Numbered from the stretch's first letter, positions 29-12,243 are shown. The stretch: DNA of 32,000 bases from Nitratidesulfovibrio vulgaris str. Hildenborough (GCF_000195755.1 NC_002937.3:180001-212000), one strand, 5' to 3'. Made by a program: numbers and translations. The notes: generated from the letters alone by a model not told the origin.

Positions 29-436
29 TCAGGGTTTTGCCTCCCGTTCTTCGAGCAGGCGTTCGTAGACGTTTTCGATACGTTCGAGCAGTTCCTCGAC
101 GGGGCAGGGTTTGAGCAGATAGTCGCTGGCCCCGGCGCGCATGGCGTCGAGCGCGATGTCGGTGTAGGCGTGTCCGCTCAGGATGATGACCGCAGCATCG
201 TCGCCCCGGCGCCGCATGGCGCGCAGCACATCCCGTCCGTCCATGTCGCCCAGCTGGATGTCGAGCAGGACGACATCTGCCGGGTTGCCGGAGAGATGTT
301 CGAGGGCGTCGCCGCCACTCCGGGCCTCATCGACGTGGAGTCCGCGGTGGCGCAGGCGCCGTATCAGGGCGTCGCGGAAGCCGTCCTCGTCGTCGACAAG
401 CAGGATGCGGCAGTGGGTGAGAAGTTCGCTTTCCAT
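29..436 (-). CDS. Stand-alone response regulator receiver (CheY-like REC) protein, no output domain
   Basis: 135-aa ORF. Receiver signature: ILLVDDE acidic pocket, phospho-acceptor context VVLLDIQLGDMDG, conserved Lys in DYLLKP. GGAG lies 7 nt upstream of the ATG at 436. Last gene of the minus-strand cluster. Confidence 0.9.
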   Translation of the reverse strand: MESELLTHCRILLVDDEDGFRDALIRRLRHRGLHVDEARSGGDALEHLSGNPADVVLLDIQLGDMDGRDVLRAMRRRGDDAAVIILSGHAYTDIALDAMRAGASDYLLKPCPVEELLERIENVYERLLEEREAKP

Positions 437-579
437 CGATTTCTCCCGTGATGACGCCGGGCGGATGCTGCGTGATCGTTTTGTCCCGTTTTCTCGTCGT
501 ACCTCGGCCTGCGGCCAGCGTCCGTCCTGATGGAGGGGCGAGGCGCGGCCTTAAAAAATGTCAGGCTGGACCCTTCCGT

Positions 580-1389
580 TCAGCATGCGGCTGCCTGTGC
601 GCAGACGACATCACCCACCCGCACGGGGACTGATGCGTCGATGACGAGCACCGTGTCGTCGCGGTGGATTTCGCGTACCACGCCGTCGCCCACGAGACTT
701 CCGTCACGTCGCATGATGCGGCAGGCCATACCGCTGGACACACCCATGGCGCGCCCGATTTCGCAGGTTGCCTCGAAACCGTCACCCGTGGGCTTGAGCT
801 TGTAGATTTCGCCGCACCCCTCTTCTCGCAGCCTTCTGGCCCACAGGTGGCCCAGCAGGAAGTCCACAAGCGCAGCGAACAGGCCGAAGGGCAGAATGCA
901 GGCTGCGGTCACGAACGGGTCGCGGTCGAGCCACCGTTCGATACGTGAGAATGATGCTGCGCGCATGGTCTCGGCATCGGGCCAGACCACGACTTCGAAG
1001 ACGAGGGCCGGGTTCTGCTTCTCGCCGTAGGGGTCGCGTACGCTGATGACGTAGTTGCCTACCGTGGGCACGTCCCCAAGTTTCACCTCGCCGCGCCACA
1101 TCCCGCCGCCGAACCAGTAGCCGGAGTAGAGTGCCTGCGGTTGCAGCACCACCTGGCCGTCGCGCGAACCGCCGTCGACCACGAACTCCTCGACGCGCTC
1201 CGTGTTGGGCGGCATGGGGCCGCTGACGGAGTAGACGCCGCCGGGGATGCCGTCGATGCGGTTCACGCCGCGCTGCATCTGGGCCAGCAGACCATCAGCC
1301 AGCGAGAGAAGGCTCAAGGCCAGCAGGACCATGGCGATGCGGCTTGAGAACCACTGTGCCCGTGCGATGGTGACGCTGCGTTGCATCAT
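580..1389 (-). CDS. Uncharacterised bitopic membrane protein (TM, extracytoplasmic beta-rich segment, TM, small cytoplasmic C-terminal domain)
   Basis: 269-aa ORF. Its ATG overlaps the stop of the upstream ORF (ATGA at 1386-1389). Hydrophobic helices IAMVLLALSLLSLA and FVTAACILPFGLFAALVDFLLG. High GC3. I recognise no family. Confidence 0.7.
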   Translation of the reverse strand: MMQRSVTIARAQWFSSRIAMVLLALSLLSLADGLLAQMQRGVNRIDGIPGGVYSVSGPMPPNTERVEEFVVDGGSRDGQVVLQPQALYSGYWFGGGMWRGEVKLGDVPTVGNYVISVRDPYGEKQNPALVFEVVVWPDAETMRAASFSRIERWLDRDPFVTAACILPFGLFAALVDFLLGHLWARRLREEGCGEIYKLKPTGDGFEATCEIGRAMGVSSGMACRIMRRDGSLVGDGVVREIHRDDTVLVIDASVPVRVGDVVCAQAAAC

Positions 1390-1646
1390 GAAGGCTGCCT
1401 TTCTTCGTGTCCGACGTTTTCGTGTCCGGCGTCTTCGCTGCGGGAGTTGCGGAGAAGACGCTTGCCAAGCCAGCCCACGAAGAGGGTGGGGACGAGGGCC
1501 GTGAAGAACGTCTTGCAGAATACGGGGGTGAACTCGTCGGGCTGGAGTGAGGCCCTGTACATGGCGAGGAACACGCAGGCCACCACGAGAAGGTTCACTG
1601 TAAGTACGAGGCCCCTGCGGGCAAGTTCGTGTCTGTAGTCACTCAT
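1386..1646 (-). CDS. Small membrane protein (two predicted TM helices), unknown function
   Basis: 86-aa ORF. GGGAG lies 8 nt upstream of the ATG at 1646. Helices LVLTVNLLVVACVFLAMY and FFTALVPTLFVGWLG. GC-rich third positions. 4-nt overlap with the next gene. Confidence 0.6.
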   Translation of the reverse strand: MSDYRHELARRGLVLTVNLLVVACVFLAMYRASLQPDEFTPVFCKTFFTALVPTLFVGWLGKRLLRNSRSEDAGHENVGHEERQPS

Positions 1647-1665
1647 GTCTATTCTCCCTGTGGGC

Positions 1666-1691
1666 GGCGGGGCCGGCCATCCGGCCCCGCC
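1666..1691 (-). promoter_or_regulatory. Intercistronic GC-rich stem-loop (11-bp perfect stem, 4-nt loop) without a U-tail
   Basis: ggcggggccgg ccat ccggccccgcc read directly. It lies between the lipoprotein stop (1719) and the next start (1646). No T-run follows on the minus strand. Confidence 0.45.
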
Positions 1692-1718
1692 TTGCGTAGG
1701 GGGGGGTGTCTTTGCAGA

Positions 1719-2333
1719 CTACTTCTTGAAGATGTCGGTCTTGCTGATGTTCATGAAGCGGAGCGATACACCTTCGGTCTTGTAGTATACGCGCACTTCG
1801 TCACCGGCTTCCCATGTATGATCGGGCATCGAGAAGTACTCGTCGGGTACCGAGAAGGTGCAGAGCATCTTCTGGCGACCGGAGTAGATGGTGATGGTCT
1901 TCTTGTCGCGATCGACCATGGGGAACTTCTTCGCCGTATCGGTGGCCTTGTCGAACACCAGCGGGTGCTGCCTGTCGATGTTCTGCTGAAGGTCGATCAC
2001 GGTGATGGTGATGTCTTCGAACGCCTGGGTCTTGGGGTTGAAGATCTTCACGATGTTGGCCTTCGTGTCGAGCTTCATGCGCAGGCCGGCTTTGGGTTCA
2101 GGCCCCATCTCCGCCGGGTCGGCCGGCAGTTTGTAGGTGTGGGGCGGCAGGGTCGAGTAGTCGGGGTTCATGGGCTCTGCCAGCTTGTCCTGAATCAGGG
2201 TGACGGTCTTGGCCTGCTTGTCGAAGGCGATGACGCGTCCCTGGTCGACCTTGCCGTATTCGCCGCAGCCCACAAGGCCGAGAGGAAGGGCCATTACCAT
2301 CAGCGTGAGCAGTATGCGCTTGATGTTCATCAT
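1719..2333 (-). CDS. Lipoprotein of unknown function
   Basis: 204-aa ORF. Signal peptide with lipobox L-V-G-C (MMNIKRILLTLMVMALPLGLVGC). AAGGAG lies 3 nt upstream of the ATG. 19-nt gap after the permease gene. Confidence 0.8.
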   Translation of the reverse strand: MMNIKRILLTLMVMALPLGLVGCGEYGKVDQGRVIAFDKQAKTVTLIQDKLAEPMNPDYSTLPPHTYKLPADPAEMGPEPKAGLRMKLDTKANIVKIFNPKTQAFEDITITVIDLQQNIDRQHPLVFDKATDTAKKFPMVDRDKKTITIYSGRQKMLCTFSVPDEYFSMPDHTWEAGDEVRVYYKTEGVSLRFMNISKTDIFKK

Positions 2334-2352
2334 AGTCTCCTTTCGTGGGCCG

Positions 2353-3405
2353 CTAGTTGGCGCGCTTGCGGGCCAGTTCCATCTGAACGCCCTGAACCAT
2401 GCGGACGAAGATGTACAGCGACATGCAGGTCACGAGGCCAAGGACGAGTACGGTGGCACCGGCGTCGAGGAAGGCCTTGTACTGGGGCACCCAGGGCTGG
2501 ACGAGCTTCATCAGGATGGAGATGGCGCAGCCGACGACGGCGAGGCCGAAGGCGATGCGGATGCCGTAACCCTTGATGTACTTGGTGGCGACAGCGCCCA
2601 CCTGCGCACCCATGGCGGCACCGACGAGCATGATGATGGCGGCTACGAGTTCGGTACGACCCTTGTATGTGTAGGTCGCTGCACCGTAGAGGCCGGAGAT
2701 CATGACTTCGAAGAGGTCGGTACCGACGGCCACGTGGGTCGGGCAGCCGATGAGGTAGATGAGGGCGGGCATGCGGATGAGACCGCCGCCGATGCCGAGG
2801 ATGCCTGCGAGCCAGCCGGTGAGGAAACTCACGAAGATGGGCAGCCATGCGGAGCAGTAGATGCCGGCTTCCTTGAGGTGCACCATCGGGGGGATCTTGA
2901 TCTTGTGCAGGGCCTTGTGCCATTCGACGCCCGTGGCGCCAGCTTCGAGCTTCACACCCTTGGCCGCGGCTTCACGTTCCTTCTGGCGACGCTTGGCCAC
3001 GTCGTGGAAGACCATCCACGCGATGAGCGCGAGCAGCACGATGTAGATCCAGCGAACGACCTTCTCGACGCTGCCTAGCCGTTCGAGCCACATGACCATC
3101 TGTGCACCGGCTTCGAAACCGACGACCGTACCCACCAGCATGATCATGCCGAGTTTGTAGTCGACGTTGCCGAACTTGCCGTGGCGCATGGTGGAGATGA
3201 GCGACTTGCCCGCCATGTGCGCGATGTCGGTGCCGATGGCGAATGCCATGGGGAAGCCGAGGATGTTGAGGCCGGGGGTGACCATCCAGGCGCCGCCCAT
3301 GCCGAAGAAGCCGCCGATGATGCCAACGCCCACGCCCAGGATGATGAGGCCGGGCCAGAAGATCTTAACGCCCGCGATGGGCATCAGGATATACAACCAT
3401 TCCAT
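2353..3405 (-). CDS. TSUP / TauE-SafE family anion permease (two 4-TM repeats) with a roughly 48-aa charged central loop
   Basis: 350-aa ORF. Repeated glycine-rich TSUP motifs GGFFGMGGAWMVTPGLNILG and GILGIGGGLIRMPALIYLIG. GGAGG lies 5 nt upstream of the ATG at 3405. Charged insert HDVAKRRQKEREAAAKG... at nt 2863-3006. Confidence 0.85.
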   Translation of the reverse strand: MEWLYILMPIAGVKIFWPGLIILGVGVGIIGGFFGMGGAWMVTPGLNILGFPMAFAIGTDIAHMAGKSLISTMRHGKFGNVDYKLGMIMLVGTVVGFEAGAQMVMWLERLGSVEKVVRWIYIVLLALIAWMVFHDVAKRRQKEREAAAKGVKLEAGATGVEWHKALHKIKIPPMVHLKEAGIYCSAWLPIFVSFLTGWLAGILGIGGGLIRMPALIYLIGCPTHVAVGTDLFEVMISGLYGAATYTYKGRTELVAAIIMLVGAAMGAQVGAVATKYIKGYGIRIAFGLAVVGCAISILMKLVQPWVPQYKAFLDAGATVLVLGLVTCMSLYIFVRMVQGVQMELARKRAN

Positions 3406-3426
3406 GGTGTCCTCCGTCGTCCTTTC

Positions 3427-3723
3427 CTAGTGTTCCGCGAGATCGCGCGACTTCAGGTCGATGCCGATGTGGTTCATGATGATGTCGGCGATGACGCCGA
3501 AGATCACGCCCACGAGGGGAATCAGGATGATGGTGAGCACCGTGAACTGGAGATGGCTCTCATTGTAGAGGTTCGCCCACCAGGCGAGGACGCCGTCGAG
3601 TTTGCGCGTGTCGGCTACGATGACGACGGGGGCACCGCCGCCACCAGCGGCGAGCGCCGTGCCGGGCAGTGCGATGAGCATCAGCATCAGCGACCACCAA
3701 AGCTTGTTGAGTCTGGCCTTCAT
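3427..3723 (-). CDS. Small exported/membrane protein (signal peptide plus one C-terminal TM), unknown function
   Basis: Track ORF 3427..3756 trimmed to the internal ATG at 3723, which is preceded by AAGGAGGAAGAC. N-terminus MKARLNKLWWSLMLMLIALPGTALA-AGGGG. TM helix FTVLTIILIPLVGVIFGVIADII. First gene downstream of the sigma-54 promoter. Confidence 0.65.
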   Translation of the reverse strand: MKARLNKLWWSLMLMLIALPGTALAAGGGGAPVVIVADTRKLDGVLAWWANLYNESHLQFTVLTIILIPLVGVIFGVIADIIMNHIGIDLKSRDLAEH

Positions 3724-3886
3724 GTCTTCCTCCTTGCATGTTGCGTTCGGTGGCAAACTCCCGGCCCTGCCGGGGCGACCCTCTGCGGCCGGGTGCCACC
3801 CTGCCTCTTCCGCGTTCCGCCCTCTTGCCCGGGGCGGAGTGTTCCCGAAAAGCGTAAGACGCGTCGCGTCTGTTGCCTTTGCTTGA

Positions 3887-3901
3887 GCAATGGCCGTGCC
3901 A
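3887..3901 (-). promoter_or_regulatory. Sigma-54 (RpoN) -24/-12 promoter directing transcription leftwards into the 3723..29 gene cluster
   Basis: The reverse complement of 3887-3901 is TGGCACGGCCATTGC, followed by T. This is an exact match to the TGGCACG-N4-TTGCW consensus with correct spacing. It lies about 165 nt upstream of the ATG at 3723 and next to a divergent sigma-54 activator gene. Confidence 0.8.
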
Positions 3902-4042
3902 AAGCTGATTTTCGTGATGGCAACATGCTGAAATCGAAGGAAGCTTGTAAGAAGTGTTGCGCGATGCTCCGAAAGGAGTTACGCAGAAACAACACCTCTG
4001 CGCGATTCGTTCCGTCTGCGAAAACCTCTTTATGGGGGGGAT

Positions 4043-6916
4043 ATGCGCTTCTACCGGCCGCCCATCATCGGCAGCGTCTTCAGAACCGACCGCTCCGCCA
4101 GGGAGTGGAGCATCCCCAAACGGATGCTCCTTGTCGGAGTGCCGCTTCTGGCGGCGGTGCTGGCGTGTTTCGCCTTCGTCACCTACAAGGTGGGCGCGCA
4201 CTATCTGACGACAGCATATTCGCGGAATTCTCTCACCCGTGCCAAGGCACAGGCCCACGAGATAGCATCCCGACTGGAGACGGCCCGCAACGAACTGCTG
4301 TTCATGGCCGACGGCATCCTCGACCCGAAAAGACTTGCCCGCTACCTGCAAGGACGCACGGAGGCCGAAGGGCTGCGCTACCGCGAGATAGCCTTCCAGG
4401 GAAACGGGGGCAAAGACGATGCCTTCGTGCTGCTCAACACAGGGCGTGGGGTGGTATCCATACCTCCCGATACGGCCCTCGCCACACGCTTCGGCCCCTT
4501 CACGCGGCAGAGTGCGCCCACCGACCCGCAGCCGGGGCAGGTGTATCTTTCGCAGCCGCTGGAGGTCATCTATCCCAGTGTGCCGGTGCCCGGTGGCGTG
4601 CAGACTCTGCCTCTTCATGTCATTCGCCTTTCGACGCCTGTCTTTGCAGAGGACGGCACCATGCGCGGCATGCTGCTGCTGTCGCTGGACGTGGTGGCCT
4701 TGCGCAACGTGCTGTCACTCTACGCCTCGCAGCGTTCCCCTCTGCACATCTATCCGCAGGAGAGCGAGCGGTATCGCAGTTTCATGTTCGACCCCGCGGG
4801 GTGGATACTCTTCCAGTCGGAATCGCCCGACCTGCCCGATGCCGACCTCTCCAATGACGTTGTGCGGTCCGGATTGCAGGGCGACCTTGGCAGGACAGGG
4901 CTGGACATCGCCTTCAGGCCCGGGCCGGAGAATGAGAACTACTGGGCCATGGTGTCGGAGGTGCAGGCGGGACGGGCTGGCTTGAGCACGCTGGGTTCGC
5001 GCTTCGCCGACGCCGCGTCCCTCAACCGTTCCAGCTTCGTGAGTTATGTCCCCATCGTCTTCCGGGGCGGGCCGGGGCAGCTGCCCTCCGTGTATGCCGG
5101 GCTGGGGTTCATCGACACCAGCTTCATGGTCATGGCCTCGTCCTACAAGTTGGCGGGTGCGCTTTCCGTTGCCCTCGGGCTTGGGGTGTTCGTCATCACC
5201 ATCGTGATGGTGTCCATGGGGGTGCGCATTGCGCGCCCGCTTATCCAGCTTGCCAACGCCATCGAGAACAAGGCCGCTGAGGATGACATGTCACCCATGC
5301 AAGATGCGCTACTTCCACGGGAAGCGCATTTGTTGCGCAAGGGGGTGAACATGATCCTTGCGCGATTGCGTGAAGTGGTGCAGGCGTCGTCGTTGCATGA
5401 TGCGCGATCGCTCGCTGCGCGCAAGAGGCAAAAGGTCTGTTTTGATACTGAGCTTGCCGTGAGCGCCTCCGACATGCCCGACCCCGACAGCGAGAAGATG
5501 CCGGGCATCGTGGGGGTCAGCCCTGCCGTGAAGTCGCTGCGTGCCCTCATACGCAAGGCCGCATCCATCGCCGCCGACGTGCTCATCATCGGCGAGACCG
5601 GTACCGGTAAAGAGCTCACGGCAGAGGCGATTCATGCCAACAGCAGCAGGGCGAAGGGGCCTTTCGTCAGCATCAACTGCGGGGCGCTTGATGAGAACCT
5701 GTTGCTCGACGCCTTGTTCGGTCACGTGAAGGGTGCGTTCTCTGAAGCGAAGGGAGAACGCAAAGGGGCCTTTCTCGCAGCGGATGGCGGTACGCTGCAC
5801 CTCGACGAGATAGGCAACGCCTCTCCCAAGGTGCAGCAGGCCCTTTTGCGTGCCCTGTCGGTGCGTCGCATCAGGCCGCTTGGCAGTGACGACGAGATAG
5901 GCTTCGACGCCCGCATCATCGCCGCGACCAACGTCGACCTGCTGGAAAGCGCGGGGCAGGGGGCGTTCCGCGAAGACCTCTACTACAGACTGGCGGTCAT
6001 CACCATCAAGACGCCTCCGTTGCGCGAACGCCGCGAAGACATTCCAGCCCTTGCCGGGTATTTCATCAAGCTGGCGTCCGTTGAGACGGGGCGCACCCTC
6101 ATGGGGCTTTCACGTGGTGCCCTGGATGCCTTGCTGCGCTACCCATGGCCGGGCAACGTGCGCGAGATACGCAACGTCATCACCCGTGCCGTCGCCTTCG
6201 CCGAATCGGACATCATCTATGAAGAGGATTTGCGCTTCGGCTTTTCGGACGCAGGTGCCGAGGCTTCGGCCGAGGCCGACCCCGTCGCTGCAGAGTGGCC
6301 CGGTGTACCCGGCCTGTCGGGCATGCCCGGCAGCGTGACCGTCGCTTCTGCGGGGGGGCATCAGCAAGGCAGGGCGGGCACGGGGGCAGGACAGGGGGGC
6401 GAGGCCTACCCCGCCTCGGGTGGGGCGACCGGCATGACCGACGCATCGATGGCTGACGTCTCCCCGAATGGAGGCGGCGAGGGCGTTGGGGGCTTCCCTG
6501 TGGCATCGTTCCCCGCCGATGGCGGCGCCTTCGATGATGCAGCGCGTCCTCGTCGGCGTTCGTCCACCATGGGCAGGGGGTATGATGCCCCTCCGGCTGG
6601 CGATGATGCGGGTGGTGCGCCTCCTACGCGTGAAGTGGTGGAACGGTCCATGCAGGGTGATCGTGCAAGACCCGGTGCGGCGTTGCGCGATGCGGATGTT
6701 CTCGCCAGCCTCAACCCCCGACAGCAGTCGGTGTGGCCGCGCATCCTGCGCGAGGGTGGCATCACCCGTAGCGCCTATCAGCAGGCACTGGGTGCAGAGG
6801 TTTCGGTGCGTACGGCACAGTACGACCTTCAGGACTTCATGAAGCGTGGAGTCCTTGCCAAGGTCGGGCGTGGGCCTGCTTCGCGCTACGTGCTTATGGA
6901 GGACTATCGGGGGTAG
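4043..6916 (+). CDS. Membrane-anchored sigma-54-dependent transcriptional activator: TM, ~300-aa periplasmic sensor, TM, HAMP, AAA+ domain, long low-complexity linker, C-terminal winged-helix HTH
   Basis: 957-aa ORF. TM1 LLVGVPLLAAVLACFAFVTY, TM2 LAGALSVALGLGVFVITIVMVSMGV. HAMP-like RIARPLIQLANAIE. Walker A GETGTGKE (nt 5591). GAFSEA in place of GAFTGA (nt 5732-5749). Walker B LHLDEIG, RIIAATN, WPGNVREI. C-terminus ITRSAYQQALGAEVSVRTAQYDLQDFMKRGVLAKVGRGPASRYVL. The start could instead be the Met at aa 28. Confidence 0.9.
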   Translation: MRFYRPPIIGSVFRTDRSAREWSIPKRMLLVGVPLLAAVLACFAFVTYKVGAHYLTTAYSRNSLTRAKAQAHEIASRLETARNELLFMADGILDPKRLARYLQGRTEAEGLRYREIAFQGNGGKDDAFVLLNTGRGVVSIPPDTALATRFGPFTRQSAPTDPQPGQVYLSQPLEVIYPSVPVPGGVQTLPLHVIRLSTPVFAEDGTMRGMLLLSLDVVALRNVLSLYASQRSPLHIYPQESERYRSFMFDPAGWILFQSESPDLPDADLSNDVVRSGLQGDLGRTGLDIAFRPGPENENYWAMVSEVQAGRAGLSTLGSRFADAASLNRSSFVSYVPIVFRGGPGQLPSVYAGLGFIDTSFMVMASSYKLAGALSVALGLGVFVITIVMVSMGVRIARPLIQLANAIENKAAEDDMSPMQDALLPREAHLLRKGVNMILARLREVVQASSLHDARSLAARKRQKVCFDTELAVSASDMPDPDSEKMPGIVGVSPAVKSLRALIRKAASIAADVLIIGETGTGKELTAEAIHANSSRAKGPFVSINCGALDENLLLDALFGHVKGAFSEAKGERKGAFLAADGGTLHLDEIGNASPKVQQALLRALSVRRIRPLGSDDEIGFDARIIAATNVDLLESAGQGAFREDLYYRLAVITIKTPPLRERREDIPALAGYFIKLASVETGRTLMGLSRGALDALLRYPWPGNVREIRNVITRAVAFAESDIIYEEDLRFGFSDAGAEASAEADPVAAEWPGVPGLSGMPGSVTVASAGGHQQGRAGTGAGQGGEAYPASGGATGMTDASMADVSPNGGGEGVGGFPVASFPADGGAFDDAARPRRRSSTMGRGYDAPPAGDDAGGAPPTREVVERSMQGDRARPGAALRDADVLASLNPRQQSVWPRILREGGITRSAYQQALGAEVSVRTAQYDLQDFMKRGVLAKVGRGPASRYVLMEDYRG

Positions 6917-6985: not shown

Positions 6986-9547
6986 GTGTCGCTGATCGAT
7001 TTTTTCCGCCGTCGCCGGACTACTCCCACTGCCGAAGAGCGTGACGCCATCATGAAGGCGTTTCGCCAGAGGTATACCCATTTCAAGGACTTGCTACAGT
7101 CCAACAGTGAACTGGGGCGTATCATGTCCGACATGGAACAGACCCTGACAGGGCACAGCCTCTTCGGCATGAACTACATCCGTTCACAGGCGACGCGGGC
7201 GGTCTTTCATACGATGCGCATGGTGACGGCACTCAACGCCATCGCCGACGACCGTTTCAGCGGTCTGGTTGCCACGGTGGAAAGCATCAACACGCGCATC
7301 AGCGACATCCTCGATGCCCGTGCCCCGGTACGCGTTGCGGAATTCGTGCTGCCCCTCGCGGAAGTGAACCGCGATGTGGTCGACTGGGTGGGTGGCAAGA
7401 ACGCCAATCTGGGTGAGATGATGAACCGGGTCGGTGTTCCCGTGCCGCGCGGCTTCGCCATCACCACCACCGCCTACCGGGCGTTCATGGACGGCAACGG
7501 CCTGATGGAGGAGACGCGCAAACTCTTGCGTGACGCCTTCGCAGACGACCCGGAAGGCCTCGTGAGAGTGTCGAAGGCCATCATGCGGCGTATCGACGAG
7601 GCCATCGTCCCCGACGAAGTGGTGGAGGCGATGCAAGCCGGATGGGATGCCACTTTCGGCCCCGGCCCCGTACGCTGCGCGTTGCGCTCCAGTGCTGTCA
7701 GCGAGGACGGCAGTCTCTCTTTCGCCGGGCAGTACCGCACCGTGCTCAACGTCACCCGCGATGAACTGCCTTCGGCTTTCCGTAGTGTGTTGGCCAGCAT
7801 CTTCTCGCCGCGTGTCATCGCCTACCGCTTGCATCAGGGGGTGCCGTTCGAGCATTGCGCCATGGCCATGGTCTGCCTTGAGATGGTGGACGCAGTGGCA
7901 AGCGGAGTGGCTTTTTCGCGGCATCCTGTCGACCTGTTGTCGGATGCCGTCGTCATCAACGGCATCTGGGGGCTTGGCGAATACGTTGTCGACGGCGTCG
8001 TGCCGCCGGATACGTGGCTGGTGTCTCGCGTCCGGCCCGACAGGGTCGCAGAACGTTCCATAGCCACCAAGAGTGTGAGACTCATGCCAGCCCTGCACGG
8101 TGGGGGCACGGTGGAAAGTCCTGTGCCACCTGAACAGCGTTCCATGCCAAGCCTGACGGATGCGCAGGTGATTGCGCTGGCTGACATGGCGCTGCGCCTT
8201 GAAGAGCACTACAGGCATCCGCAGGACATGGAGTGGGCGCTGGATGGCGCCGGGCGGCTGGTGGTGTTGCAGACCCGTCCCATGCGGCTGGCCGATGCGC
8301 GTTCCGACAACCTGCCCGCTTCGCCCCGCATCGAGGGTGCAGGGCTGCTTCTCGAGGGCGGGGATGTGGCGTGTGCTGGGGTCGGCTGTGGCCCGGTCGT
8401 GATCCCGTCATCGGCAGAGGAACTCGCGGCATTCCCCTGCGGCGGGGTTCTCGTGGCGGCGCACTCGTCACCGAATTATGTGCTGGTCATGGACAGGGCG
8501 CAGGCCATCATCACCGATGCGGGCAGTGTCACAGGGCACATGGCGTCGCTTTCACGCGAGTTCAACGTGCCGACGCTGCTCAATGCGCGCGACGCCATGC
8601 GAACGTTGCGCCCCGGTCAGGAGGTGACGGTGGACGCCATCTCGGGCCGCGTCTATGAGGGGTGCGTCGAAGAGTTGCTGGCGCTGCGTCGTCCGCGGCA
8701 GGTGTGTCTGGGCGACACGCCCGTCCATATCGCCCTGCGGCGCGTCGCCGACCATATCCTGCCCCTGCACCTTGTCGACCCCAAGGCCGCCACGTTCATC
8801 CCGCGGTCGTGCACCACGTTGCACGACGTCATGAGGCTGGTGCACGAATTCTCGTACACAGAGATGTTCCGGCTGAGTGATACGGCTACCGTGGCGGGGT
8901 CGGTTGCTGTGGAACTCAAGGCGAGTGTGCCGCTGGACTTGCACGTCATCGACCTTGGCGGCGGGCTTGCCGATGTGGACGGGCCCTACGCCTACCCCGA
9001 GCAGGTGGCGTCGGCACCCTTCGGCGCGCTGCTCGAGGGAATGCTCGACCCGGAGGTGCATGTGCGCGGGCCGCGGCCCATCGACATGGGGGGCTTTCTC
9101 TCCGTCATGGGGCGGCACATGATCGAACCGCCCAACATGCACACAGAACGCTTCGGCGACCGCAGCTACGCCATCGTCTCCGACAAGTACATGAACTTCA
9201 GCTCGCGTGTTGGCTACCATTACAGCATCCTCGACGCCTACTGCGGCGCGACCATGAACAAGAACTACATCACGTTCGAGTTCAAGGGCGGGGCTGCGGA
9301 CGAGGTGCGGCGGGAACGCCGGGTGAAGTGCATCGGCATCATCCTGCGCGAACTCGGTTTCACCATCGAGGTTCAGGGCGACCGTGTGCAGGCGCGCTAC
9401 CTCAAGTACCCGCCGGAGGAGATTCGTGCCCGACTCGTGCAACTGGGCAGACTGCTCATCGTCACCCGGCAGATGGATATGCTGATGACCACCGAAGCCG
9501 CAGTGCAGACATTTGCCGATAACTTCCTCAAGGGTGACTATCATTGA
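6986..9547 (+). CDS. PEP synthase / pyruvate phosphate dikinase-related phosphotransferase (ATP-grasp PPDK_N domain plus swivelling phospho-His domain) with a non-canonical C-terminal domain
   Basis: 853-aa ORF with a GTG start at 6986 preceded by AGGAGGG. VGGKNANLGEM nucleotide-binding motif. Mobile-domain motif TDAGSVTGHMASLSREFNVPTL, with the His codon at 8537-8539. The C-terminal ~280 aa lack the PEP/pyruvate TIM-barrel motifs I know. Confidence 0.85.
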   Translation: MSLIDFFRRRRTTPTAEERDAIMKAFRQRYTHFKDLLQSNSELGRIMSDMEQTLTGHSLFGMNYIRSQATRAVFHTMRMVTALNAIADDRFSGLVATVESINTRISDILDARAPVRVAEFVLPLAEVNRDVVDWVGGKNANLGEMMNRVGVPVPRGFAITTTAYRAFMDGNGLMEETRKLLRDAFADDPEGLVRVSKAIMRRIDEAIVPDEVVEAMQAGWDATFGPGPVRCALRSSAVSEDGSLSFAGQYRTVLNVTRDELPSAFRSVLASIFSPRVIAYRLHQGVPFEHCAMAMVCLEMVDAVASGVAFSRHPVDLLSDAVVINGIWGLGEYVVDGVVPPDTWLVSRVRPDRVAERSIATKSVRLMPALHGGGTVESPVPPEQRSMPSLTDAQVIALADMALRLEEHYRHPQDMEWALDGAGRLVVLQTRPMRLADARSDNLPASPRIEGAGLLLEGGDVACAGVGCGPVVIPSSAEELAAFPCGGVLVAAHSSPNYVLVMDRAQAIITDAGSVTGHMASLSREFNVPTLLNARDAMRTLRPGQEVTVDAISGRVYEGCVEELLALRRPRQVCLGDTPVHIALRRVADHILPLHLVDPKAATFIPRSCTTLHDVMRLVHEFSYTEMFRLSDTATVAGSVAVELKASVPLDLHVIDLGGGLADVDGPYAYPEQVASAPFGALLEGMLDPEVHVRGPRPIDMGGFLSVMGRHMIEPPNMHTERFGDRSYAIVSDKYMNFSSRVGYHYSILDAYCGATMNKNYITFEFKGGAADEVRRERRVKCIGIILRELGFTIEVQGDRVQARYLKYPPEEIRARLVQLGRLLIVTRQMDMLMTTEAAVQTFADNFLKGDYH

Positions 9548-10854: not shown

Positions 10855-12243
10855 ATGCACAACGACGCCCGCCAACGCATGGTGGTGCTCGGTCTGGACG
10901 GCCTGCCGCTGGACCTCGCCCGCGACCTCTGCGCCGCAGGGCGCACCCCGCACCTCTCCCGCATCGTCAACGCCGCCGGAACCCGCACCATCGAGGCGGA
11001 ATTGCCCGAACTCTCGCCGGTGAACTGGACGTCGTTCTACACTGCCGCAGGGCCCGAGGAACACGGCGTGTTCGGGTTCACCCGCATCAACGCCGCGACC
11101 TATGCCCTGTCCTTGGCCGACTTCACGCAGGTGCGGGTGCCGACCCTCTTCGACCGCCTTGGCGAGGCGGGCTTCACCTCGCGCGTGGTGAACCTGCCCA
11201 ACACCTATCCCGCACGCCCCATACCGGGAATGCTGGTCTCGGGCTTCGTGGCCACGGACCTTGCGCGGGCGGTGCATCCGCCCTTCCTGCTGGGGCCGCT
11301 GGCAGGTGCGGGCTACCGGCTTGAGGCCGACACCTCGCGCGGTGGCGACGACCCGGCACACCTGCTTGTGGAATTGCGCGCCACACTCGAAAGTCGCCGC
11401 AAGGCGTTGCGCTTGCTGTGGCCCGACCTCGCGTGGCATCTCTTCGTCTTTGTGCTGACGGAGACGGACAGGCTCTTCCATTTCCTGTGGGATGCGGTGA
11501 CCGACGTTGCCAACCCGCTGCATGGGCCGTGTATGGATGTGCTGGCCCTGTGGGACACGGTGATTGGCGAAGTGCTCGACCTCGTGGCGGCACTCCCCGG
11601 CGGTGCCCGTCTCATGGTGCTGGCCGACCACGGTTTCACCCGGCTGGTGACCGAGGTCGACATCAACACGTGGCTGCGTCAGGAAGGGCTGTTGCAACTG
11701 GCCCCGGCGGGCCCCGCGGCAGATGCGGGAATGGAACTCGACGCCTCGCGCATCCTTCCCGGCAGCGTGGCCTTCGCCCTCGACCCCGGGCGCATCTACC
11801 TGCATACGCGCCGACGCTTCGCACGTGGCGGGCTTTCCGATGCCGAGGGCGTGGCCTTGGCTGCACGCCTGCGCGAGGGGCTGCTGGGATTGACCTACGC
11901 CGGACGCCCCGTGTTGCGTGATGTCCTGCCCGCCGACGGCCTGTACGACGGCCCCTGCCGCGACATCGCCCCCGACCTCGTCTGCGTCCCGCACGAGGGC
12001 TTCGACCTCAAGGCCAAGTTCAATCGTCCTGCCGTGTTCGGGCGTTTCGGGCGCACCGGAACGCATAGTGTGCACGGGGGCATCTTCCATGACAGCGAGG
12101 GTGGTGCCCCGCACCGCCTGCGTGACGCCGGAAGGCTGGTGCTCGAACATTTCGGCCTTTCCCGTCGACCCGACGCCGGAGGGCGTCTTGTGACCACTCC
12201 AACACAGGGCGCGTCCTGCATGCCCATAACGATGCACAAATGA
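10855..12243 (+). CDS. Type I phosphodiesterase / nucleotide pyrophosphatase family (alkaline phosphatase superfamily) enzyme
   Basis: 462-aa ORF. AAAGGAAG precedes the ATG. Metal-site DG in VVLGLDGL. Nucleophile region PELSPVNWTSFYTAAGPEEHGV aligns with the NPP motif PTxTFPNHxSxxTGxxPxxHG, with Ser in place of Thr. Later VLADHGF. Confidence 0.85.
   Translation: MHNDARQRMVVLGLDGLPLDLARDLCAAGRTPHLSRIVNAAGTRTIEAELPELSPVNWTSFYTAAGPEEHGVFGFTRINAATYALSLADFTQVRVPTLFDRLGEAGFTSRVVNLPNTYPARPIPGMLVSGFVATDLARAVHPPFLLGPLAGAGYRLEADTSRGGDDPAHLLVELRATLESRRKALRLLWPDLAWHLFVFVLTETDRLFHFLWDAVTDVANPLHGPCMDVLALWDTVIGEVLDLVAALPGGARLMVLADHGFTRLVTEVDINTWLRQEGLLQLAPAGPAADAGMELDASRILPGSVAFALDPGRIYLHTRRRFARGGLSDAEGVALAARLREGLLGLTYAGRPVLRDVLPADGLYDGPCRDIAPDLVCVPHEGFDLKAKFNRPAVFGRFGRTGTHSVHGGIFHDSEGGAPHRLRDAGRLVLEHFGLSRRPDAGGRLVTTPTQGASCMPITMHK

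Follow-up and report, generated by a model that had tools for sequence, protein, structure and literature searches.

The genes considered here, DVU0145-DVU0152 of Desulfovibrio vulgaris Hildenborough, lie at the beginning of a 32-kb stretch of DNA (positions 180001-212000 of the genome, referred to here as the window) and encode a TSUP-family permease with four other envelope proteins, a receiver, a sigma-54 activator and a phosphotransferase-like protein. The closest described system is the DVU0151 regulon of Kazakov et al. 2015 (PMC4641369), which concerns the same locus, activator, promoter and operon. In Table 1 of that paper DVU0151 is a single-component regulator with a GAFSEA loop, its target is DVU0150-DVU0146 and the assigned function is 'transmembrane transport'; its gene is given as divergent from a sigma-54 promoter. 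According to the corresponding passages, DVU0151 stands alone among the 37 activators in having a winged-helix DNA-binding domain (SSF46785 in orthologues) instead of a Fis-type one, and GAFSEA is counted among the loop variants expected to retain activity. The same passages state a 'long conserved N-terminal region' in the activator and make no mention of its transmembrane (TM) topology, of DVU0152, of a wider taxonomy or of replacement by a two-component system.

A second body of work concerns expression of the same genes. According to Qi et al. 2014 (PMC4265775), who cite Walker 2009 for the coculture and Plugge 2010 for the return to sulfate, DVU0145-DVU0150 were up-regulated in coculture with methanogens, two different ones over these studies, and down-regulated when sulfate was added and the cells went back to respiring it. 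Qi et al. 2014 (PMC4265775) provided support by single-cell reverse-transcription quantitative PCR, in which DVU0145, DVU0148 and DVU0149 were the only cluster genes assayed (their abstract names a DVU0148-DVU0150 cluster), and no cluster gene responded in the pure-culture conditions tested. In this literature the cluster is described as syntrophy-specific lipoproteins and membrane proteins (Qi et al. 2014, PMC4265775); in the parts of these studies that deal with it, expression is treated without a mechanism and DVU0145 is taken as the likely regulator. A literature search found no paper proposing a biochemical function for the cluster proteins and nothing relevant on DUF4881, DUF1634, DVU0152, or the G20, Miyazaki and Desulfobulbus locus tags, and a Syntrophobacter proteome paper does not mention the cluster proteins.

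The components can also be compared with better known families. DVU0149 shares with the TauE/SafE permeases of the TSUP family (TC 2.A.102) a TauE domain that spans the protein and hydrophobic segments along its length, although it is larger, contains a central loop rich in charged residues, is a remote relative of the characterised members and is always encoded with four dedicated envelope proteins. This arrangement may be likened to that of TRAP and TTT transporters, in which a secondary carrier, small membrane subunits and an extracytoplasmic protein are co-encoded under dedicated regulation, but there is no homology, and the lipoprotein of the cluster is modelled as all-beta without a known fold, not as an alpha/beta binding protein. 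DVU0151 shares with the NtrC-family enhancer-binding proteins the AAA+ domain, its lid, a variant of the GAFTGA loop, the divergent position and candidate upstream sites, whereas its input is a two-helix TM periplasmic sensor with a HAMP-like linker, an architecture of histidine kinases and chemoreceptors, fused to the AAA+ domain, and its output module, a winged helix, follows a linker of ~145 amino acids. Finally, DVU0152 has the ATP-grasp and phospho-histidine domains, and the catalytic histidine motif, of phosphoenolpyruvate (PEP) synthase, rifampin phosphotransferase and phenylphosphate synthase, but, unlike PEP synthase, it lacks the PEP/pyruvate-binding TIM barrel, and its 290 C-terminal residues have no relative in Pfam or the PDB.

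The module and its regulatory logic are already published for this strain, the regulatory layout having been predicted in 2015. What is added here is the conservation of the cluster, the spread of its promoter, candidate activator-binding sites, a link with DVU0152 and the exclusivity of the activator's sensor. We hold with moderate confidence that the locus encodes an inducible multi-subunit TSUP transporter, controlled by its activator and coupled to a cytoplasmic phosphotransferase, and with much less confidence any particular substrate for it.

Gene Organization

Adding 180000 to a window position gives the published genome coordinate (DVU0148 lies at 181719-182330 and DVU0150 at 183427-183723 in the supplement of Trotter et al. 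2023), and the published quantitative PCR primers for DVU0148 and DVU0149 match the window exactly on the minus strand, at 1815-1835 and 3157-3178. The locus is DVU0145-DVU0152 of D. vulgaris Hildenborough, with the following features:

29-436, minus strand: DVU0145, CheY-like receiver, 135 amino acids
580-1389, minus strand: DVU0146, 269 amino acids, two TM helices, without a family
1386-1646, minus strand: DVU0147, 86-amino-acid two-helix membrane hairpin
1719-2333 (annotated start 2330), minus strand: DVU0148, 204-amino-acid DUF4881 lipoprotein
2353-3405, minus strand: DVU0149, 350-amino-acid TSUP (TauE/SafE) family permease
3427-3723, minus strand: DVU0150, 98 amino acids, NCBIfam 'DVU0150 family'
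3724-3875, minus strand: 5' leader of ~150 nucleotides (nt), from the sequence and the predicted start site
3886-3901, minus strand: sigma-54 -24/-12 promoter TGGCACGGCCATTGCT, exact consensus
3957-3985, region without an assigned strand: candidate activator-binding sites, TTGCGCAA-type 7-mers
4043-6916, plus strand: DVU0151, 957-amino-acid membrane-anchored one-component sigma-54 activator
6986-9547, plus strand: DVU0152, PEP-synthase-like phosphotransferase

The six minus-strand genes are separated, from the promoter-proximal end, by 21, 19, 72, -4 and 143 nt, so that the tight packing given in a preliminary description of the locus (gaps of -4 to 143 nt) was reproduced. All six are preceded by a Shine-Dalgarno sequence of their own, as also claimed there (AAGGAGGA, CGGAGGA, AAAGGAG, AGGGAGA, GAAAGG and CGGGAGA). 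That of DVU0146 is weak and the start of this gene overlaps the 3' end of DVU0147 by 4 nt, suggesting that translation of DVU0146 is coupled to that of DVU0147. The intergenic region between DVU0150 and the divergent DVU0151 measures 319 bp (320 in the preliminary description), and DVU0151 is indeed the sole sigma-54 AAA+ gene in the 32-kb window; DVU0145 is the sole receiver gene there, and the remaining large open reading frames checked are housekeeping genes.

Conservation of the Cluster

One genome per species was scanned with a DUF4881 alignment, which found relatives in 304 species; the best 80 loci were read, and the component counts below come from the 47 of these with full 8-kb flanks. 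The 80 loci belong mainly to Desulfovibrionales, Desulfobulbales, Syntrophobacterales and other Desulfobacterota, with a few metagenome bins labelled Nitrospira or Acidobacteriota, and in these best 80 loci the order DVU0150-TSUP-DUF4881-86-amino-acid-269-amino-acid protein is collinear throughout. DVU0150, the TSUP permease and the DUF4881 lipoprotein are each present in 47/47 loci, the 269-residue protein in 46/47 and the short and divergent 86-residue protein in 37/47; by tblastn, and despite its short length, the latter was found at the equivalent position in 59 of the 80. The receiver and the membrane-type activator occur in 35/47 each. The co-occurrence of activator and six genes, suggested as a check in the preliminary description, is strongest for a five-gene core, which is collinear across orders of Desulfobacterota, with activator and receiver accompanying it in most of the loci counted. 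In many lineages, Syntrophobacterales among them, a histidine kinase with an NtrC-type response regulator takes the place of the membrane activator.

Median identity to the D. vulgaris proteins is 81% for the permease, 67% for the DVU0150 family, 62% for the lipoprotein, 43% for the 86-residue protein and 32% for DVU0146. The permease is thus far better conserved than the other four core proteins, which fits a constrained core with multiple partners, and it is the strict collinear co-conservation of the five genes that suggests that their products may form a single permease complex.

In ~11 Humidesulfovibrio or Desulfocurvus-type genomes (four of the loci read and related ones), genes for an Ech/Coo-like membrane-bound [NiFe] hydrogenase (NuoL-, NuoH- and NuoB-like proteins and the large subunit, judged by eye) lie 1-5 kb downstream of the cluster; this neighbourhood may be lineage synteny.

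The Sigma-54 Promoter and the Leader

The exact sigma-54 promoter pointing into the operon, which the preliminary description placed at 3887-3901 on the minus strand, was recovered as TGGCACGGCCATTGCT (3886-3901). It is the sole exact match to TGGCAC-N5-TTGCW in the window, where 0.02 are expected by chance, and it is still the sole match when one mismatch is allowed (1.33 expected). From the positions of the promoter GG (3900-3899) and GC (3888-3887), the start site is predicted near 3875.

Of 75 orthologous loci, 48 have a -24/-12 element at a distance of 85-235 nt upstream of their first gene. In a further 26 loci the operon is led by a universal stress protein (usp) gene, and 25 of these have the sigma-54 element upstream of usp; the information content of the pattern gives chance expectations of ~2 (of the 75 loci) and ~1 (of the 26 usp-led loci). 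D. vulgaris Hildenborough has no usp gene at this place, and Desulfobulbus loci carry TTGN variants of the -12 element. With the membrane activator replaced by a kinase and an NtrC-type regulator in many lineages, what appears from these sequences to be constant across lineages is sigma-54 control, not the type of activator.

The orthologous leaders are 85-235 nt long. The D. vulgaris leader gave no Rfam match and its predicted fold is unremarkable (z -1.3), so that the presence of a riboswitch was discarded. A perfect palindrome, AGACGCGTCGCGTCT, is located directly downstream of the predicted start site (3857-3871) and may act as a 5' stem-loop or bind a protein; Nitratidesulfovibrio relatives have another inverted repeat (GCGCGG...CCGCGC) at the equivalent place. 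In the leaders of nine Desulfobulbus orthologues there is a hairpin, ~60-130 nt before the first gene, with compensatory changes at 8/15 pairs, a CUCCCCC loop and a second ACUCCCCC motif upstream, also without an Rfam match. A related sequence, ACACUCCGCCCC, is present in the D. vulgaris leader. The Desulfobulbus hairpin and the ACUCCCCC motif might be anti-Shine-Dalgarno or protein-binding elements.

The Activator DVU0151

DVU0151 matches Pfam Sigma54_activat (E 1.7e-58) and AAA_lid_14, with a Walker A motif (GETGTGKE) at residue 517 and GAFSEA, a variant of the GAFTGA loop, at residue 564. A hydropathy scan places hydrophobic helices at residues 28-46 and 376-394, either side of ~330 residues, in agreement with the earlier claim of a membrane-inserted activator with a large periplasmic sensor. 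The periplasmic segment gives a weak match to dCache_1 (E 7.5e-4; score 19.5 bits, cutoff 45), and residues 370-449 weakly resemble the second TM helix and HAMP domain of NarQ (E 0.025). The order of the protein is TM helix, periplasmic sensor, TM helix, HAMP-like segment, AAA+ domain, lid, linker and C-terminal winged-helix-like domain. No HTH_8 or Fis match was obtained in the Pfam search, that is, the Fis-type helix-turn-helix by which the NtrC family is recognized was not found, and no receiver, GAF or PAS domain is present.

The linker between the AAA+ lid and the winged-helix-like domain is a Gly/Ala/Pro-rich low-complexity segment of ~145 residues (residues ~745-890, window ~6275-6710), a long tether that would let the membrane-bound ring reach the DNA. 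The orthologues of DVU0151 have total lengths of 826-1043 amino acids.

The periplasmic domain (window 4181-5167, plus strand) has 123 representatives among 1.84 billion cluster representatives, nearly all of which are 800-960 residues long and carry the domain at the equivalent position. The sensor therefore appears to be essentially exclusive to its own activator family, which would be compatible with its monitoring part of the system itself and not some common metabolite. A sensor shared between DVU0151 and the histidine kinases that replace it was also considered, but neither phmmer nor a hidden Markov model of the family detected any similarity.

Among the 7-mers found within 160 nt upstream of the promoter, TTGCGCAA-type palindromes are the commonest. 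Of 49 orthologous upstream regions, 26 contain them, at conserved offsets of 57-115 nt upstream of the -24 element; in D. vulgaris the minus strand has CGCGCAA at 3963-3957 and TGCGTAA at 3985-3979, respectively 62 and 84 nt upstream of this element. We infer that these motifs are candidate activator-binding sites.

The Permease and the Other Envelope Proteins

The enlarged TauE/SafE permease with a charged central loop that had been proposed from the sequence was borne out. DVU0149 matches Pfam TauE (PF01925) over residues 20-296 (E 3.9e-43, 148 bits against a cutoff of 32.6), and the hydropathy scan shows hydrophobic segments along its whole length and a charged central loop of ~50 residues (~137-185). 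Its sole NCBIfam match is partial (residues 21-135, E 1.4e-4) and far under the family cutoff, no equivalog model matched, and no solved TSUP structure was found by sequence search.

DVU0148 covers positions 1-174 of the 174 of DUF4881 (PF16222, E 4.5e-94) and has a lipobox (LVGC) whose cysteine, Cys23, is invariant in the homologue alignment, so that its earlier identification as a lipoprotein stands. It has >1800 homologues. Its AlphaFold2 model (pLDDT 86) is that of an all-beta, periplasmic protein with no significant fold match in the PDB by Foldseek (best E 0.077). Similarity of DUF4881 to Mop/TOBE-type domains is at noise level (Foldseek E 0.3, Pfam GlcV_C E 0.16) and was not used as evidence.

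The remaining three proteins are also membrane-bound. DVU0150 belongs to the NCBIfam equivalog NF040783, 'DVU0150 family' (E 6.5e-45, 151.6 bits against a cutoff of 70), and according to the hydropathy scan it has a signal-like N-terminus, a short periplasmic segment, one TM helix and a short cytoplasmic tail, as expected for the exported or TM protein described before. It also gives a weak Pfam match to DUF1634 (E 0.0095). DUF1634 proteins are small membrane proteins often encoded beside TauE/DUF81 permeases; if this holds generally, small partner subunits would be a general theme of TSUP permeases. DVU0147 has no family match in Pfam or NCBIfam, and the hydropathy scan agrees with a protein of two TM segments that form a membrane hairpin. 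DVU0146 has no Pfam or NCBIfam match either, and 87 homologues were found. It had been described as bitopic, but both the hydropathy scan and the AlphaFold2 model (pLDDT 94) give it two TM helices: the model consists of a TM helix, a periplasmic Ig-like beta-sandwich, a second TM helix and a small cytoplasmic beta-barrel, the last with two cysteines near-invariant in the homologue alignment. A Foldseek search of the PDB returned only generic chagasin-like and Ig sandwiches (best E 5.8e-4). The topologies of the envelope proteins thus put domains on both faces of the membrane. The view that none of the accessory proteins belongs to a characterised family holds: informative structural relatives were not found, the 86- and 269-residue proteins match no family, and the lipoprotein and DVU0150 fall in DUF4881 and in the 'DVU0150 family'.

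The permease family and the expression data bear on what might be moved. One explanation is that the TSUP complex is a high-affinity importer that scavenges sulfur oxyanions (sulfate, thiosulfate or sulfite), with the lipoprotein as receptor, induced without electron acceptor and repressed by sulfate. The TSUP family has been linked to sulfur-containing anions and its genes are abundant in sulfate reducers (Marietou 2018), the published summaries have the cluster down on the shift from syntrophy to sulfate respiration, and its distribution is almost confined to sulfate-reducing or syntrophic Desulfobacterota. We nevertheless regard this explanation as unlikely, considering that the structural hints for DUF4881 are at noise level, that Marietou 2018 favour another TSUP gene, DVU2958, as the sulfate-transporter candidate, that no phenotype of the cluster genes was found in the part of the supplement of the fitness study that was covered, and that the PEP-synthase-like protein would be left without a role.

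A permease of this family could also work in the opposite direction, expelling an anion (sulfite, a sulfonate or a fermentation end product) for export or detoxification, with the accessory proteins stabilising or gating it. Export of sulfite or sulfoacetate is the function given for the sole characterised members of Pfam TauE (family name; Marietou 2018), and the reported induction takes place in a fermentative state with altered metabolite pools. However, uptake or outside-in sensing would agree better than export with the presence of a periplasmic lipoprotein and of an activator whose sensor faces the periplasm, and DVU0149, with its partial NCBIfam match, is only distantly related to the characterised TSUP members; we regard export as quite unlikely.

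DVU0152 and the Receiver DVU0145

DVU0152 lies outside the part of the window covered by the preliminary description (29-6916). Its gene starts 70 nt after that of the activator with no terminator predicted between them, and the two are probably co-transcribed. The protein contains PPDK_N (ATP-grasp, E 3.8e-88) and PEP-utilizers (phospho-histidine swivel, E 7e-18) domains, and its catalytic-histidine motif, GHMA, is conserved. The PEP synthases of the PDB match residues 118-570 only, all the NCBIfam PEP-synthase models score far under their cutoffs, and no match to the PEP/pyruvate-binding TIM barrel (PEP-utilizers_C) was found in Pfam even at E 5. In place of this barrel there is a strongly conserved C-terminal domain of ~290 amino acids with no relative in Pfam (E 5) or by PDB profile search; a search of 5.8 billion proteins showed it in no other architecture, under the homology-based annotation 'pyruvate, water dikinase'. 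Because the defining feature, the barrel, is absent, DVU0152 should not be called a PEP synthase.

DVU0152 is encoded in 34 of the 47 fully flanked loci at >=40% identity over its full length, and more weakly related proteins are present in 7 more; where the activator is of another type, its gene is convergent to the end of the cluster or directly follows the lipoprotein gene. This has consequences for the unit outlined in the preliminary description. Its regulatory half is upheld by the divergent activator, by the conservation of promoter, candidate upstream sites and gene order and by the independent prediction of Kazakov and coworkers. The unit as a whole is already published. It is also not self-contained as drawn there: DVU0152, encoded right behind the activator, is conserved together with the cluster.

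A gene of the type I phosphodiesterase/nucleotide pyrophosphatase family is located ~1.3 kb downstream of DVU0152 (10855-12243, plus strand).

DVU0145 matches Pfam Response_reg over its full length (E 4e-28) and has the residues of a receiver, that is, an acidic pocket (DD15-16), the phospho-acceptor D59, S87 and K109, in accordance with its earlier description as a lone CheY-like receiver. Its best NCBIfam matches are the receiver domains of NtrC-family regulators.

The presence of these two proteins raises the explanation that the cluster is not a transporter but a signalling or envelope-adaptation complex, a sensory or structural membrane assembly of the TSUP-like protein and its partners, responding for example to contact with a partner cell or to energy limitation by way of the receiver and the phosphotransferase. 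Its co-conservation with receiver, histidine kinases and phosphotransferase, and with usp genes in 27 loci, would be in line with this, as would an activator sensor that is exclusive to its family, suggesting that it reads a component of the system, and the description of the cluster in the literature as syntrophy-specific. On the other hand, the most conserved component has a canonical secondary-carrier fold, no domain typical of adhesion or of signalling output is present, and the same cluster is found in many organisms without a known obligate partner; we consider this explanation improbable.

Proposed Mechanism

In the inducible transporter that we favour, the periplasmic domain of DVU0151 would receive a signal, either a small molecule or contact with the periplasmic part of the complex that it controls, and this signal would pass through the second TM helix and the HAMP-like segment to the AAA+ ring. 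DVU0151 would bind the TTGCGCAA-type sites ~60-110 bp upstream of the -24/-12 element through the C-terminal winged helix on its long flexible linker and open the RpoN promoter complex. The TSUP permease, the small membrane subunits DVU0150 and DVU0147, the DUF4881 lipoprotein and DVU0146 would then assemble into one multi-subunit secondary transporter, DVU0152 would phosphorylate the transported solute or a protein partner, using ATP and its swivelling histidine, and DVU0145 could tune the activity. Going by the published expression data, the unit is on in syntrophic, sulfate-free growth and off when sulfate respiration resumes. A more specific version, in which the cluster represents a new class of lipoprotein-using multi-subunit TSUP transporter, the activator reads the periplasmic components of this transporter, and DVU0152, carrying a new substrate domain, phosphorylates a solute specific to the sulfate-free or syntrophic life of Desulfobacterota, is put forward only tentatively and we regard it as doubtful.

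Several observations weigh against this mechanism. In about one locus in four no DVU0152 gene lies within 8 kb, and it is its gene neighbourhood that suggests its role. The dCache assignment of the activator's sensor is under the Pfam threshold, and DVU0148 is all-beta, unlike a classical Venus-flytrap binding protein, with no significant structural relative in the PDB by Foldseek. More generally, gene content, promoter, conservation and the published expression pattern are established, while we infer that a complex forms and transports, what it would transport, what DVU0152 does and what kind of signal is sensed. Walker's coculture data are reportedly from a comparison with a sulfate-limited monoculture, in which case sulfate starvation alone would not be the full explanation of the induction. 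The operon given in the corresponding passages of Kazakov et al. 2015 (PMC4641369) stops at DVU0146; this end, together with the 143-nt gap, means that the receiver DVU0145 may be transcribed separately. DVU0148 and DVU0150 carry, and tolerate, many transposon insertions in the relevant parts of Trotter et al. 2023, and no phenotype of the cluster was found in the main text and parts of the supplement of the transposon fitness study.

Biological Significance

The cluster is kept among sulfate-reducing and syntrophic bacteria, in 304 species or more, and the design of its activator, a TM sensor of the kinase style fused directly to a sigma-54 AAA+ engine, is unusual. With the regulatory layout already in the literature, the interest of the locus now lies in what this widely conserved membrane system, responsive to syntrophy, does for the cell, in the design of its activator and in the newly noted link with DVU0152. 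Identifying what the cluster moves or senses would fill a gap in the understanding of the switch between sulfate respiration and partnership with methanogens, a switch that matters for anaerobic carbon turnover.

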